A stretch of 64,000 nt of DNA from an uncultured Anaerolineaceae bacterium (GTDB lineage: Bacteria > Chloroflexota > Anaerolineae > Anaerolineales > UBA4823). The translations under genes were made by a program, and so were the position numbers. Every line of letters begins with the position of its first letter. Positions within the stretch are counted from its first letter, which is position 1. Shown here piece after piece: positions 26,422-31,398 of this stretch. The DNA is taken from positions 4,386 to 68,385 of the forward strand of contig CAZAQS010000001.1 of NCBI GenBank assembly GCA_964486825.1, given 5' to 3'. The notes below the pieces were generated by a model. The model saw nothing but the letters and a program-made list of their open reading frames with translations. It did not search any database and was not told the origin of the DNA.

Positions 26422-27207
26422 TCAAGATATGCGCTTACCCGTGATCAGGTCTGCGATATCCTCCTGGGTAAGCTCGCCTTTATGGTATGTACCGACATTC
26501 TGTCCCTGTCGAATGATGGTATAGCTGTCGGCGACCATATACACATGGTTGACATTGTGGGTGATAAAGATCACCGCCAGGCCCCGCTGGCGAGCATTTT
26601 CGATATAACTCAAAACCTTGCGCGTCTCTCCTACTGAAAGAGCAGAAGTAGGTTCATCCAGGATGAGCACTTTTGCACCAAAGTGGACACCCCTGCCGAT
26701 AGCGATGGACTGGCGCTCACCACCTGAAAGGCTGCCCACGCGTTCAGAGGCCGAGCGGACCTCGATGCCGATATCGGCGAGCGATCTCCGGCATTGCTCG
26801 TTCATCTCCTTGATATCCAGCCAGCTTAACGGTCCCAGCTTTTTGACCAGCTCTCTTCCCAAAAAGAAATTCCGTGAAATGCTCATCAGGTTCACCAGGG
26901 CCAGGTCCTGGTAAACGGTTTCGATGCCGATGGCGCGTGCATCCCTGGGAGAATTGATCTGGATCGGCTTTCCTTCAAAATATATGGTCCCGCGCGTGGG
27001 AGGGTAGACGCCCGTCAATACTTTAATCAGCGTGGACTTGCCAGCCCCGTTATCCCCTAACAATGCCCGCACCTCACCTGCATCCACTTCAAAATCCACG
27101 CCTTTCAAGGCCGTTATCGTCCCAAACTGCTTCACAATCTGAACCATCTTGACCATGGGCGTCTCCCTGCCAGGATTGGATAAATCCGCCATTTTCACTC
27201 TCCTCAT
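26422..27207 (-). CDS. sugar ABC transporter ATP-binding protein, single NBD
   Basis: 261 aa with GDNGAGKST, LSGGERQSIAIGR and LILDEPTSAL. Only one nucleotide-binding domain is present. Confidence 0.85.
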   Translation of the reverse strand: MRRVKMADLSNPGRETPMVKMVQIVKQFGTITALKGVDFEVDAGEVRALLGDNGAGKSTLIKVLTGVYPPTRGTIYFEGKPIQINSPRDARAIGIETVYQDLALVNLMSISRNFFLGRELVKKLGPLSWLDIKEMNEQCRRSLADIGIEVRSASERVGSLSGGERQSIAIGRGVHFGAKVLILDEPTSALSVGETRKVLSYIENARQRGLAVIFITHNVNHVYMVADSYTIIRQGQNVGTYHKGELTQEDIADLITGKRIS

Positions 27208-27234
27208 AGCGCTTGTCTAGCGCCAGCGCCCCGG

Positions 27235-28260
27235 TTAGCGCCGCTCACGAAGCCATTTATTTAAAATTACCGCTGCAATGATCGTTACACCCACGATTGC
27301 TTCAAAATTATCCGCCGGTATAAAGGGGATGTTCAGGAGAACGACACCCGTACGCAAAGTGCTGATTAATAAGACCCCGATCAGGGCTCCCCAAATGCTG
27401 CCCATACCACCCTGCAGGAGCGTGCCTCCCACCACAGCTGCCGCAATCGCGCTCAGCTCTATCCCGGCTCCCGATGCGACCCGGATGGTCGTAAATTGGC
27501 TGAACAGCAGGACGCCAGCAAAGCCAGCCAGAGCTCCTGAAATCACAAAAGCGAATACCTTGGTCCGTTTTACGTTGACGCCCTGCACCATGGCTGCCCC
27601 CGGATTACCTCCAACAGCAAAAATATGGTTCCCAAACCGGGTGCGCGTCAGCAAGTACTGGCAAAAGATAGCCAGGCCGATCAACCAAAGTGCAGCAGTG
27701 CGGAAATTTGCGCCGGTCCATAGGTCGTTGACCACGTCCAAACGCCCATTGAAGACGTTAAAGATGGGGTATTTCTCTACGATCTGTAACAGCGCCCCTC
27801 CTGAAACCACCCAAACCAATCCCCTGTAGATATATCGGGTTCCCAAGGTAACGATAAATGAAGGAATATTGGTACTAATCAAGATCAAACCGTTGACCGC
27901 TCCCAATATGCCTGGAACCAGGATAGCGAGCAATACACCTAGATAAGGATTTCCATTCTCGACGTTCATGGCAAACAGATATCCCCCCATGGCTACCAGC
28001 GCGCCTACGGACAGGTCAAATTCTCCCGAGATCATCAATAAAGTAATGCCAATTGTGACAACACCCGTCAGTGTAGCAGCATTGATAATGCCAGAAATAG
28101 ACCGGACGGTGAGGAAATTATTCACGAAAATTGCGAACAGGACAATGACGATCAGGATCGTAGCTATGGGACCCGCAATAGTCGATTCAGCAAAAAGGCT
28201 GCGCAGGTTCTTCTGCCATGTAACGGTCGAATTCATACCTAAACTCCAGGCTGTACTCAT
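27235..28260 (-). CDS. sugar ABC transporter permease (RbsC/CUT2 type), copy 1
   Basis: 341 aa and polytopic, with ISGEFDLSVGA and GGTLLQGGMGS motifs. Confidence 0.8.
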   Translation of the reverse strand: MSTAWSLGMNSTVTWQKNLRSLFAESTIAGPIATILIVIVLFAIFVNNFLTVRSISGIINAATLTGVVTIGITLLMISGEFDLSVGALVAMGGYLFAMNVENGNPYLGVLLAILVPGILGAVNGLILISTNIPSFIVTLGTRYIYRGLVWVVSGGALLQIVEKYPIFNVFNGRLDVVNDLWTGANFRTAALWLIGLAIFCQYLLTRTRFGNHIFAVGGNPGAAMVQGVNVKRTKVFAFVISGALAGFAGVLLFSQFTTIRVASGAGIELSAIAAAVVGGTLLQGGMGSIWGALIGVLLISTLRTGVVLLNIPFIPADNFEAIVGVTIIAAVILNKWLRERR

Positions 28261-28309
28261 GCCCGGAATGGGCTGACCTTTCAGCCCATTCCGGCGCCCA
28301 CAAAAACGT

Positions 28310-30283
28310 TTACCTGTACTGTCCAGCCAACTCCTTCACAAGCTGGACGTTGTTTATATCTACAAAGCCCGGCCCGGTGGGGGTTACTGGTAGAGCCGGG
28401 GAGATATTCTGGCGGTTGTAAAGGGCCAAAGCCATCACCGCGCCATAGCCTTGTAAGAATGGCTGCTGGTCAATAGCGAACAAGGTGGTACCATTTTCCA
28501 GGTTAGCCACCACTTCCGGGGTGACATCGAAGGTGCCGTGCACCACATCCCCGGCAGAAAGCCCGGCTGCATCCATGAAGGCATAGAAGGGGTTAGCCCC
28601 CGTCGGTCCCAGGGTCATGAAGGCGTTCACATCCGGATTGGCAGTGTAGTAATCATCGATGGTGGTCTGTGAAGCTGCCGGGTCAGAAGAGATCGCCAGT
28701 ACTTCGGCTGTGAAGCCGTTCTCCGCAAAGGCATCCGTGAAGCCCCGGCAGCGTGCATCCAGGCCAACGTGCCCGACCTGGTGGTTGATGCACACACCAA
28801 CTTCGCCGCCCGCATCGACCATACGCAAGCCGCCCAGGTAGCCGCCCTGGTACTCATCTTGCCCGAGGTAGGTCAGGTAGGGGATGCCATCGTTGATCGG
28901 ACCGGCTCCGGCATTGTAGGCGATCACCGGAATGCCGGCTGCGATGGCGCGGTTGATCGGCTCACGGAATAGGACCGGATCGCTCACCGTCAATGCGATG
29001 CCATCCGGCTGGGCGGCAATCGCCTGGTCGATCAATGAGGCCGTCCGCTCCAGGTTGAACTCATCAGGTCCCAGGATTGTTACATCCACATCCATATTCG
29101 CGGCAGCCTCTTGGATGCCGTTTTCCACGACACACCAGAAGGCGTCCCAGGCGCATAGGGCGTGCTGTACCATGACGAAGTTGAGTGGCTTATCCGGTTC
29201 GACAGGCGCTCCCACGGTCTCGGCAGTCACAAAACCGGGGCCGGTTGCCGTAACGGGCAATGCGGGCGTGATGCCATAATTGTTGGCGAGCATCAGCCAC
29301 ATCACCGCGCCGTAGCCCTGCAGATAAGGCTGCTGGTCGATAGCGAACAAGGTGGTCCCGTTTTCAAGATTGCCTTCCACTTCCGGGGTGACATCGAAGG
29401 TGCCGTGCACCACATCCCCGGCAGAAAGCCCGGCTGCATCCATGAAGGCATAGAAGGGGTTAGCCCCCGTCGGTCCCAGGGTCATGAAGGCGTTCACATC
29501 CGGATTGGCAGTGTAGTAATCATCGATGGTGGTCTGTGAAGCTGCCGGGTCAGAAGAGATCGCCAGTACTTCGGCTGTGAAGCCGTTCTCCGCAAAGGCA
29601 TCCGTGAAGCCCCGGCAGCGTGCATCCAGGCCAACGTGCCCGACCTGGTGGTTGATGCACACACCAACTTCGCCGCCCGCATCGACCATACGCAAGCCGC
29701 CCAGGTAGCCGCCCTGGTACTCATCTTGCCCGAGGTAGGTCAGGTAGGGGATGCCATCGTTGATCGGACCGGCTCCGGCATTGTAGGCGATCACCGGAAT
29801 GCCGGCTGCGATGGCGCGGTTGATCGGCTCACGGAATAGGACCGGATCGCTCACCGTCAATGCGATGCCATCCGGCTGGGCGGCAATCGCCTGGTCGATC
29901 AACGAGGCCGTCCGCTCCAGGTTGAACTCATCAGGTCCCAGCACGGTTACATCGATGCCCATATCTTCCGCCGCGTCTGCGATGCCCTGTTCAACCGTAC
30001 ACCAGAAGGCGTCCCAGGCGCATAGGGCGTGCTGTACCATGACGAAGTTAAGCCCTTCACCTGTAGGTTGGGCTGGCGGCGCAGGTGGTTCTACTACGGG
30101 AGCCTCCGTAGGTTCTTCAACGGGCTCTTCCACAGGAGCTGGGGGCTCTGCCGGTGGGGCAGGCGGTTCTTCCTGGGGGACAGGCGTCGGTTGAGTGACC
30201 TCTGGCGTAGGACTCGGCTGGCATGCAGCCAGGACGACTGCCAGCACCAGAAGGGCTGTAAAGAGCAGGTTCAACTTTTTCAT
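28310..30283 (-). CDS. lipoprotein with two tandem periplasmic sugar-binding (PBP type I) domains
   Basis: 657 aa with a lipobox (LAAC) and a PE-rich linker. Two ~289-aa SBP modules follow, each starting LNFVMVQHALCAWDAFWC. The central ~188 aa of the two modules are identical. Confidence 0.8.
   Translation of the reverse strand: MKKLNLLFTALLVLAVVLAACQPSPTPEVTQPTPVPQEEPPAPPAEPPAPVEEPVEEPTEAPVVEPPAPPAQPTGEGLNFVMVQHALCAWDAFWCTVEQGIADAAEDMGIDVTVLGPDEFNLERTASLIDQAIAAQPDGIALTVSDPVLFREPINRAIAAGIPVIAYNAGAGPINDGIPYLTYLGQDEYQGGYLGGLRMVDAGGEVGVCINHQVGHVGLDARCRGFTDAFAENGFTAEVLAISSDPAASQTTIDDYYTANPDVNAFMTLGPTGANPFYAFMDAAGLSAGDVVHGTFDVTPEVEGNLENGTTLFAIDQQPYLQGYGAVMWLMLANNYGITPALPVTATGPGFVTAETVGAPVEPDKPLNFVMVQHALCAWDAFWCVVENGIQEAAANMDVDVTILGPDEFNLERTASLIDQAIAAQPDGIALTVSDPVLFREPINRAIAAGIPVIAYNAGAGPINDGIPYLTYLGQDEYQGGYLGGLRMVDAGGEVGVCINHQVGHVGLDARCRGFTDAFAENGFTAEVLAISSDPAASQTTIDDYYTANPDVNAFMTLGPTGANPFYAFMDAAGLSAGDVVHGTFDVTPEVVANLENGTTLFAIDQQPFLQGYGAVMALALYNRQNISPALPVTPTGPGFVDINNVQLVKELAGQYR
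28510..29074. repeat. intragenic direct repeat, copy A (565 bp)
   Basis: Compared by eye base by base with 29377..29941 at an offset of 867 bp. There is a single mismatch (29036 T versus 29903 C). The flanks are only roughly 80% identical. Confidence 0.9.
29377..29941. repeat. intragenic direct repeat, copy B (565 bp)
   Basis: Partner of 28510..29074. The ORF track shows duplicated antisense ORFs at the same +867 offset. Confidence 0.9.
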
Positions 30284-30396
30284 CTTTTTCCTCCAAAGCT
30301 CAAAACAAGTTAGGCATGTAGAAGTTCCAGGATTGACAGATGGAAAGCCATTTTAATGTGGAGCACCTCCTTTCACATGAACGGACATATGTACGC

Positions 30397-31398
30397 TCAC
30401 TCACCGCCGCGTAGATAGGTATTACTGATCACAGCAATAATAATGATCAAGCCAGCCACTGCCTGGAAGATTTGGATGGGGATACGCATCAAGACCAGGC
30501 CCTGTTCGAGCATTTGCAGCAAGATGATACCCACCATTGCTCCGAAAATGGTGCCAACACCCCCTTTCAAGCGGGTCCCCCCGATCACGCAAGCCGCTAC
30601 TGCGATCAGCTCCATGCCCTCCCCGCGCAGTGGATCCACGCTGGACCTGTGGGCAAACTGCATGATCCCCGCCAGCCCGGCCAAGACTGCTGCAATCATG
30701 AAGTTAGTCACTTTAACCCGGTTAACGTTCACACCCTGGGCTAATGCAGCCTCTGGAGAACCACCGGCTGCAAATGTCCAGTTGCCGTATTTTGTGCGCA
30801 TTAAAATAAAAGAGAAGATGAGGGCAATCAGCAGGAACCAAATGATCGACAGACGGAAATTAGGAACAGGGACAAACAGCTGGTTGAGAGGAGTGATAGG
30901 GCCGTTCAAGTAGTTGAAGAAGGTCAGGGCCTCACCGGTATAGGTAGCAAAATCGCCGCTCCCGATAGCTCTCACAATCCCTCGATAAGCCAGCATGGTG
31001 CCCAGGGTAGCGATAAAGGAAGGAATCCCTGAACGCGTCACGATCAATCCGTTGAGTAGCCCAAGCAGCGCGCTGACCAGGAGCGCCAGTATGGCTGCCA
31101 GAAAGGGCGCAACACCGGCAATCAGGGAGAGCGCAAACACGTAACTAGAGACTGCGAACGTTGCGCCCACCGAAAGATCGAACTCTCCCGAGATCATCAG
31201 CATGGCCACGCCGATAACCATAATCCCGGTGATGCTACCGAACGTGAGGATATTCGCAAAAGCAATCGGGGTGAGAAAAGTGTCTGTCGCCAGGCTGAAG
31301 AACAGGAAAACTGCCAGGAAGCTTACCAGGGCAACGACTTCCGGGATGGTAGCCAGGCGGTAGCGGAATCTCGTCCAGGTTTCTGTCATAATTGCCAT
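30397..31398 (-). CDS. sugar ABC transporter permease (RbsC/CUT2 type), copy 2
   Basis: 333 aa, a paralogue of 27235..28260 (ISGEFDLSVGA, GGTRLKGGVGT). Confidence 0.8.
   Translation of the reverse strand: MAIMTETWTRFRYRLATIPEVVALVSFLAVFLFFSLATDTFLTPIAFANILTFGSITGIMVIGVAMLMISGEFDLSVGATFAVSSYVFALSLIAGVAPFLAAILALLVSALLGLLNGLIVTRSGIPSFIATLGTMLAYRGIVRAIGSGDFATYTGEALTFFNYLNGPITPLNQLFVPVPNFRLSIIWFLLIALIFSFILMRTKYGNWTFAAGGSPEAALAQGVNVNRVKVTNFMIAAVLAGLAGIMQFAHRSSVDPLRGEGMELIAVAACVIGGTRLKGGVGTIFGAMVGIILLQMLEQGLVLMRIPIQIFQAVAGLIIIIAVISNTYLRGGE

Follow-up and report, generated by a model that had tools for sequence, protein, structure and literature searches.

In a 64,000-nucleotide stretch of DNA from an uncultured Anaerolineaceae bacterium (GenBank assembly GCA_964486825.1, contig CAZAQS010000001.1, positions 4,386 to 68,385 of the forward strand; the whole stretch is hereafter called the window), a substrate-binding protein (SBP) gene in an inositol catabolic (iol) operon encodes two complete binding modules in a single lipoprotein. 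The gene occupies positions 28310-30283 on the minus strand, as do all window features described below, and is an intact open reading frame (ORF) of 657 amino acids plus stop codon. The central parts of both modules are nearly identical at the DNA level, and the sequences at their edges are diverged. This arrangement very probably reflects an old duplication followed by repeated recombination between the modules, and the protein is predicted to have two equivalent inositol-binding sites on one tether.

The homogenised core was delimited by position-by-position comparison of its module 1 copy (29377-29941, amino acids 115-303) with its module 2 copy (28510-29074, amino acids 404-592). At an offset of 867 bp, 564 out of 565 bases were identical, with a longest exact run of 526 nt. 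The only mismatch, at position 29903 with its partner 29036, is located 38 nt inside the core edge and is synonymous (TCG versus TCA, Ser127/Ser416). Identity, offset and mismatch had already been reported in an earlier reading of this DNA (the sequence-only reading) and were all borne out by our comparison. An independent repeat search also recovered the 867-bp spacing; Tandem Repeats Finder reported no repeat at the locus, because its longest period is 500. Within the 5.5-Mb genome of 578 contigs, the core sequence was present at these two places only. Given a proportion of synonymous differences (pS) of 0.41, as in the N-side flank, the probability of observing two or fewer synonymous differences in the 143 synonymous sites of the core is 8.5e-30, indicating that the core identity is real and far beyond chance.

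Outside the core, similarity drops on both sides. The N-side flanks (29942-30055 in module 1, 29075-29188 in module 2) agree at 89 of 114 positions (78%). On the C side, module 1 continues into a segment that also comprises the inter-module linker (29189-29376), and module 2 ends with 28313-28509, which encodes the last long helix, a hairpin and the C-terminal helix. Comparing 28322-28509 with 29189-29376 gave 111 identical positions out of 188 (59%). This value combines 78% identity in the 78 nt adjoining the core (28432-28509 versus 29299-29376) with 45% identity in the outer part (28322-28431 versus 29189-29298). The flanks had been described as about 80% identical; this is accurate immediately beside the core on either side, but not further out on the C side.

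To place the gene among its relatives, a protein search was limited to lengths of 361-1150 amino acids. It returned 381 relatives at E ≤ 1e-30, and the best 120 of these all measured 550-732 amino acids and carried PF13407. Scanning one genome per species then yielded 79 loci, nearly all of them from Chloroflexota (Anaerolineae, Caldilineaceae and others), including the complete long-read chromosomes OZ241871, OZ241377, OZ241994 and OY759723 as well as long-read metagenome-assembled genomes (MAGs). A domain hidden Markov model (HMM) detected two modules in one ORF in 70 genes of the scanned loci, and modules 1 and 2 of all 70 genes were aligned codon by codon. The copy number of this repeat is two in every one of them, although long identical direct repeats should be easily deleted, which suggests selection for two heads. 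The view that fused double SBPs are uncommon is partly right, with the qualification that, when a single module served as query, two or more matched stretches were present in about 26 of the best 150 clusters at 50% identity, and that the present family is widespread in Chloroflexota.

Flanks and cores of the 70 genes gave contrasting trees. In the flank tree (225 nt), the module-1/module-2 label required 3 changes, compared to a mean of 47 after label shuffling, and none of 500 shuffles was as low. Similarly, in a 24-genome subset, all module-1 flanks fell on one side of a branch with a support of 98. The flanks thus group by module position, indicating that the duplication is ancestral. In the core tree (624 nt), in turn, the label required 47 changes, which corresponds to the random expectation obtained by shuffling. 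The two halves of a gene were sister leaves in 31 of 70 genomes in the core tree, as opposed to 0 of 70 in the flank tree, and the window's two halves were paired with 100% support. Forcing the cores to group by position came at a cost of 3657 log-likelihood units (P value of the approximately unbiased test (p-AU), 1e-55).

Complementarily, we compared the window with its closest relative, a JGI contig (locus L094) of 91% amino-acid and 83% nucleotide identity. At 75 core sites, window and relative differ in both halves, and in 73 of these cases both halves carry the same change; within the relative, about 20 core sites distinguish one half from the other. Synonymous divergence (dS) of the core is 0.014 between the window's modules 1 and 2 and 0.15 between those of the relative, but reaches 0.79-0.92 between orthologous modules of the two genomes. 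Core synonymous sites are thus free to change between orthologues and do so jointly in the two halves, a signature of concerted evolution through recombination between the repeats, which rules out constraint alone. The sequence-only reading had attributed the mosaic to recent conversion within the gene, or to homogenisation between its halves, as opposed to a simple old duplication. This proposal is supported by the contrast between flank and core trees, by the dS values and by the 73 co-substitutions.

Homogenisation is not restricted to this genome. In the 70 genes, the core halves are between 62% and 100% identical, with high-identity tracts that start and stop at different codons in different genomes. 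The bin containing helix 1 and the last ~40 codons, in turn, are diverged between the halves in almost all 70 genes. Cores that are 96-98% identical were found in long-read and complete-chromosome assemblies (L075, L053, L092 and L037), and two of these (L075 and L092) each carry 11-12 departures from the family consensus identically in both halves, with 4 such shared departures in the window. As a separate observation, the margin by which third-position G+C of the core exceeds that of the flanks correlated weakly and positively with identity between the halves (Spearman rho 0.32, P = 0.008; 70 genes), which hints at GC-biased conversion.

On the protein level, a profile search matched PF13407 (Peripla_BP_4) in two full-domain stretches (E = 2e-82; 277 bits compared to a cut-off of 35). 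According to the HMM envelopes, module 1, including a short C-terminal inter-module linker, spans amino acids 77-365 (29189-30055; strands and helices 10-283 in the structural model), and module 2 spans amino acids 366-657 (28313-29188; model elements 299-583) and ends in a final C-terminal helix, VKELAGQYR. An AlphaFold2 model computed from an alignment of 92 orthologues (pLDDT 94.5, pTM 0.92) shows two ribose-binding-protein-like alpha/beta modules with a short linker in between; it covers only the last 7 residues of the preceding tether (amino acids 70-76), and model residues 1-6 have a pLDDT below 50. Together with the intact ORF, the two PF13407 matches and the model confirm the earlier description of two complete periplasmic-binding-protein (PBP)-type modules in one lipoprotein of the iol cluster. 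In a Foldseek search of the PDB, the top matches were all sugar SBPs (probability 1.00), and 50 out of the 50 matches listed cover a single module (query TM 0.33-0.43). The closest solved structure is the single-module SBP 4RU1 (ACEI_1806 of Acidothermus cellulolyticus; target TM 0.71, query TM 0.39), to which each module aligns end to end by sequence (E = 2.9e-38, 33-34% identity). Profile, fold and adjoining ATP-binding cassette (ABC) genes identify the protein as a PF13407, CUT2-type (cluster B) SBP. Each module also contains four cysteines that are invariant across the 92 orthologues (amino acids 88, 95, 209 and 223 in module 1; 377, 384, 498 and 512 in module 2) and sit in the motifs CAWDAFWC, VCINH and ARCRGF, which suggests two disulfides per module beside the predicted pocket.

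In the structural model, the core begins where strand 2 ends and reaches the helix at amino acids 300-308. The unconverted N side comprises strands 1 and 2 together with the CAWDAFWC loop and helix 1 (amino acids 92-108 in module 1, 381-396 in module 2), which in module 1 lie within 29942-30055, and the unconverted C side comprises a strand, the last long helix (amino acids 319-336 in module 1, 608-625 in module 2) and a hairpin, followed by the linker in module 1 or the C-terminal helix in module 2. Between orthologues, the ratio of nonsynonymous divergence (dN) to dS in the flanks is 0-0.06, with values of about 0.05 for the N flanks (about 0.04 for the module 2 N flank compared to L094), 0.03 for the module 1 C flank, and dN = 0 at dS = 0.82 for the module 2 C flank compared to L094. 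These ratios indicate strong purifying selection on the flanks. Position-specific residues are found family-wide: alignment column 19, just after the WC motif, holds Thr in 70 out of 70 module-1 sequences (Thr96 in the window) and Val in 64 out of 70 module-2 sequences (Val385), and several last-helix positions as well as the whole tail behave in the same way. Conversion has crossed the N flank in four loci (L017, L032, L035 and L039), and the barrier on this side is hence not absolute, whereas no gene of the 70-gene sample showed homogenisation of its C-terminal ~40 codons.

We propose the following course of events. The duplication giving rise to the two modules predates the divergence of the roughly 70 sampled species, most of them Chloroflexota, and the cores have since evolved in concert. 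Homologous recombination between the direct repeats would have repeatedly copied a central stretch of ~190 codons from one module onto the other, presumably by non-reciprocal gene conversion and possibly with occasional unequal exchange. In the genome studied here, the latest of these events would be very recent, leaving the cores nearly identical. As the edges of the repeat unit mark the limits of homology, conversion tracts would seldom reach them, and the divergence building up there would in turn block exchange. In addition, each module position may retain its own edge sequence under purifying selection, in keeping with a structural role of its own. Probably acting together, these two causes would shield the edges from conversion and preserve their divergence. 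A change arising in the core, in contrast, would spread to both modules, such that both binding pockets would stay alike.

All family-invariant motifs (QHAxC..D..WC, NAG, GxDEY, CxNxQVG, RCxGF, TFD and DQQP) are present in both halves, and the family-conserved motifs are identical between the window's two modules, so that the same ligand is predicted for both pockets. Most likely, the protein thus presents two equivalent inositol-binding sites on one tether. A different behavior was observed in one subclade (L027 (5952-7944), L042, L049, L061 and locus L006 of genome G002), where 17-24 conserved sites of module 2 are changed, including those in the altered motifs CAYDPYW, YDTG, GAEDY, DAQP and LIGY. 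Module 1 of the same genes has 2-6 departures, and the halves are only 62-68% identical. Judged by its motifs, this subclade looks like an escape from conversion with a changed pocket, possibly followed by a second specificity. A link between conversion and function is supported by this subclade as well as by the consensus departures common to both halves in L075, L092 and the window.

On a more speculative level, selection might be what maintains the recurrent intragenic concerted evolution, keeping the pocket cores uniform, so that changes in specificity would reach both heads. A defined surface made up of helix 1, the last long helix as well as the tail would remain position-specific because the heads differ in structural role, for instance in how they pack against each other or in which order they dock on a heterodimeric permease, and one subclade would have escaped, possibly towards a second ligand. 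We put this broader account forward as a tentative suggestion that is plausible but may well not hold.

Some loci depart from the two-module layout. One of them (L085:3664-4837, plus strand) carries a one-module gene in which signal, tether and N flank (WCTVEAGI) are of the module-1 type and the C flank (…VEALAGVYR) is of the module-2 type; it represents either the expected product of recombinational deletion between identical cores or an assembly collapse. Another (L022:3270-6108, plus strand) is a 946-amino-acid variant in which a third PBP module of only distant relationship (70 bits to the family HMM) separates the lipoprotein signal from the homogenised pair. When the single-module loci L087, L088 and L093 and a distant outgroup were used as root, the 68 flank columns did not separate an ancestral single-module state from secondary loss.

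Several points weigh against an old duplication homogenised by recombination, or against the literal form in which it is seen here. Exact inter-half runs of at least 400 nt (407-683 nt) occur only in apparent short-read contigs, several of them NODE_-named, and in this window, whereas the longest exact run in long-read assemblies is 248 nt at most; in MEGAHIT contigs, it never exceeds their k. Assembly type was judged from contig names where shown. A sole mismatch 38 nt from the core edge is a pattern that a de Bruijn graph would also leave after popping isolated internal bubbles. In addition, a tree pairing the window's two flanks is 25 log-likelihood units worse, but with a p-AU of 0.07 on a short alignment it is not formally rejected. 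Both the copy number of two and the exact identity in this assembly rest on comparative evidence, and inositol is a putative ligand, proposed from operon context and homology. The best NCBIfam name, rhizopine SBP NF052284, was assigned at 444 bits compared to a cut-off of 420, with each module contributing roughly half, and the cut-off is passed only by the two-module sum. We therefore rejected membership in this equivalog family, since the score is summed over two modules and a single module lies far below equivalog level.

As long exact runs are confined to apparent SPAdes-type assemblies, the literal 564/565 may be slightly inflated. A partial assembly artefact of this kind would leave the two-module gene real, but the short-read assembler would have passed through one graph node twice and popped isolated single-nucleotide polymorphism bubbles between the halves, and the true identity would be a few percent lower, for example 96-99% like that of L094 or L075. 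The fragmented state of the genome, a MAG of 578 contigs, the distribution of long runs across assembly types and the lone mismatch near the core edge all fit this scenario. However, two JGI contigs (L015 and L094) retain isolated differences inside their cores, showing that collapse is not inevitable. Moreover, the scenario would alter only the age of the last conversion and not the mechanism, as dS between the halves would still lie far below 0.8-0.9. We regard it as rather improbable, although it is the best surviving of the alternatives.

Recurrent homogenisation could also be achieved by cycles of unequal crossing-over, in which the gene would go down to one or up to three modules and then return to two, instead of by non-reciprocal conversion. 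Direct repeats 867 bp apart are suitable substrates for such exchange, and the one-module gene L085, with its module-1 N flank, core and module-2 C flank, resembles a deletion product, but could also be an assembly collapse. None of the 70 genes has this repeat in three copies, the third module of L022 being a PBP domain unrelated to the repeat, and a return from one to two modules would require the conserved junction to be regained. Short internal tracts (122-254 nt in L059, L045 and L022) fit patchy conversion better. Overall, we consider crossing-over cycles unlikely as the route.

A full assembly artefact, that is a true single-module gene to which the assembler added a second module by duplication or chimera formation, is highly improbable. 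It could be suspected from a near-perfect 565-bp repeat within one contig of a fragmented MAG and from the single-module relative L085 with its N flank of module-1 type and C flank of module-2 type. However, the 302 bp between the cores (29075-29376), which encode the module 1 C flank, the linker and the module 2 N flank, are orthologous in L094 and the 70 two-module genes, including those in complete long-read chromosomes, with a dN of 0.05-0.07 compared to L094; the junction segment proper (29189-29376; dN 0.07) is present in all 70 orthologues. A conserved junction is not something an assembler can invent, and an assembler-made duplication of a single-module gene is therefore excluded by it. 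The outcome of a single-domain gene, which had been named beforehand as a possible refutation and was addressed here via orthologues, was accordingly not upheld. Purifying selection alone on an old duplication without recombination, for which orthologue comparison and the synonymous-site pattern had been proposed in advance as a check, would account for most family-invariant residues sitting in the core, but has a negligible probability and was rejected as the cause of identity, since core synonymous sites are nearly saturated between orthologues and nearly unchanged between the halves, the 73 between-species substitutions are common to both halves and the core tree groups by genome.

Returning to the homogenised two-module protein, its N-terminus comprises a signal peptide with lipobox (30221-30283; VLAAC with Cys21, assigned by the established rule L-[AS]-[GA]-C; translation MKKLNLLFTALLVLAVVLAAC), followed by a Pro/Glu/Ala-rich tether of low-complexity sequence (30056-30220, amino acids 22-76; QPSPTPEVTQPTPVPQEEPPAPP...). 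The gene is embedded in a same-strand array with the order iolG, iolE, coenzyme A (CoA)-acylating methylmalonate-semialdehyde dehydrogenase, iolG, iolD, ATPase, permease, SBP, permease, iolB and LacI-type regulator, in which iolB, iolD and both iolG genes match above NCBIfam equivalog cut-offs. This neighbourhood, which is shared by L094, identifies the protein as the binding component of the inositol catabolic operon's importer.

The importer (26422-31398) is atypical for the ribose (CUT2) type, in which a fused two-nucleotide-binding-domain (NBD) ATPase, one permease and a one-module SBP are the usual layout. Here, a single-NBD ABC ATPase of 261 amino acids (26422-27207), matching only the first half of two-NBD CUT2 ATPase models, is combined with two different permeases and a two-module SBP, an arrangement shared by L094. 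One permease is encoded downstream of the SBP gene (27235-28260) and resembles AraH, RbsC and similar CUT2-type proteins, with all matches below equivalog cut-offs; the second is encoded upstream (30397-31398) and likewise has CUT2-type permease matches below equivalog cut-offs. In some genomes, a second two-module SBP gene lies directly downstream of the first (L027:8057-8558, L082:5111-9377 and L091:8449-10194). Its frame is interrupted in the long-read MAGs L077, L082 and L091 and in G002 (L006), reflecting either homopolymer-type sequencing errors or pseudogenes.

Between the stop codon of the SBP gene and the start codon of the downstream permease, we found a perfect 14-bp G+C-rich hairpin (28261-28297; 16 pairs with extension; -31.1 kcal/mol, z = -5.1) that is not followed by a T-run. 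Of 14 orthologous loci that were folded, most have an equally strong hairpin of unrelated sequence here, as does L094. The hairpin probably stabilises the mRNA between the two cistrons and thereby raises expression of the SBP relative to that of the permeases. Scans for promoter and terminator consensus sequences in the vicinity of the SBP gene gave no more hits than in shuffled sequences.

The family provides about 70 natural replicates with tracts of varied age and boundary inside one ORF. It is thus a convenient system to study the limits of conversion tracts, GC bias in Chloroflexota, and how uniform specificity in a tandem SBP is kept or, in one subclade, lost. For metagenomics, the locus illustrates that short-read assemblers break at such repeats, collapse them to one module or may over-homogenise them, which has probably happened in many MAGs, and domain counts and identities annotated for such genes in MAGs should be treated with care.

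Among characterized proteins, the closest in fold is the single-module CUT2/cluster-B SBP 4RU1, whose ligand we take to be myo-inositol. It shares the PF13407 fold as well as DQQP, GTFD and related motifs in the alignment; the window protein, in contrast, carries two such modules in one lipoprotein. Rhizopine SBPs (NF052284, MocB type) are similar in that each window module spans nearly the whole 289-position model and in that both occur in inositol-derivative transport contexts, but the window operon is iol, not moc.

In architecture, the nearest counterpart that has been studied is the ABC importer GlnPQ, the binding domains of which belong to a different fold class (amino-acid type, cluster F). 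GlnPQ is described as having tandem binding domains that are fused to its transmembrane domain and differ in specificity and affinity (PMC8025302). Both systems place two serial binding domains on one membrane-held bacterial polypeptide feeding one translocator. The window modules differ in residing on a separate lipoprotein without membrane domain, with permeases encoded by separate genes, and in being of the sugar-binding type and nearly identical.

With regard to process, the family belongs with duplicated prokaryotic genes such as tufA/tufB that recurrently evolve in concert. Such long-lasting concerted evolution has been called rare, with 26 genes catalogued (Wang & Chen 2018, PMC6053082). 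The terms 'ABC' and 'binding protein' do not occur in the main text of that study, and literature searches yielded nothing specific on gene conversion in tandem SBPs or on two-module inositol SBPs in Chloroflexi. As in the tufA/tufB type, the duplicates of one genome resemble each other more closely than they resemble their orthologues elsewhere, and do so in many lineages; likewise, the duplication precedes speciation, conversion tracts have diverged edges, and uniform function of both copies is the likely selective rationale. The differences are that a single polypeptide carries both copies here as modules, encoded 867 bp apart within the same ORF instead of in separate genes, and that a defined part of each copy is exempt from conversion. 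The two-module SBP of Chloroflexota is thus a new example of a known process, recurrent concerted evolution by gene conversion.

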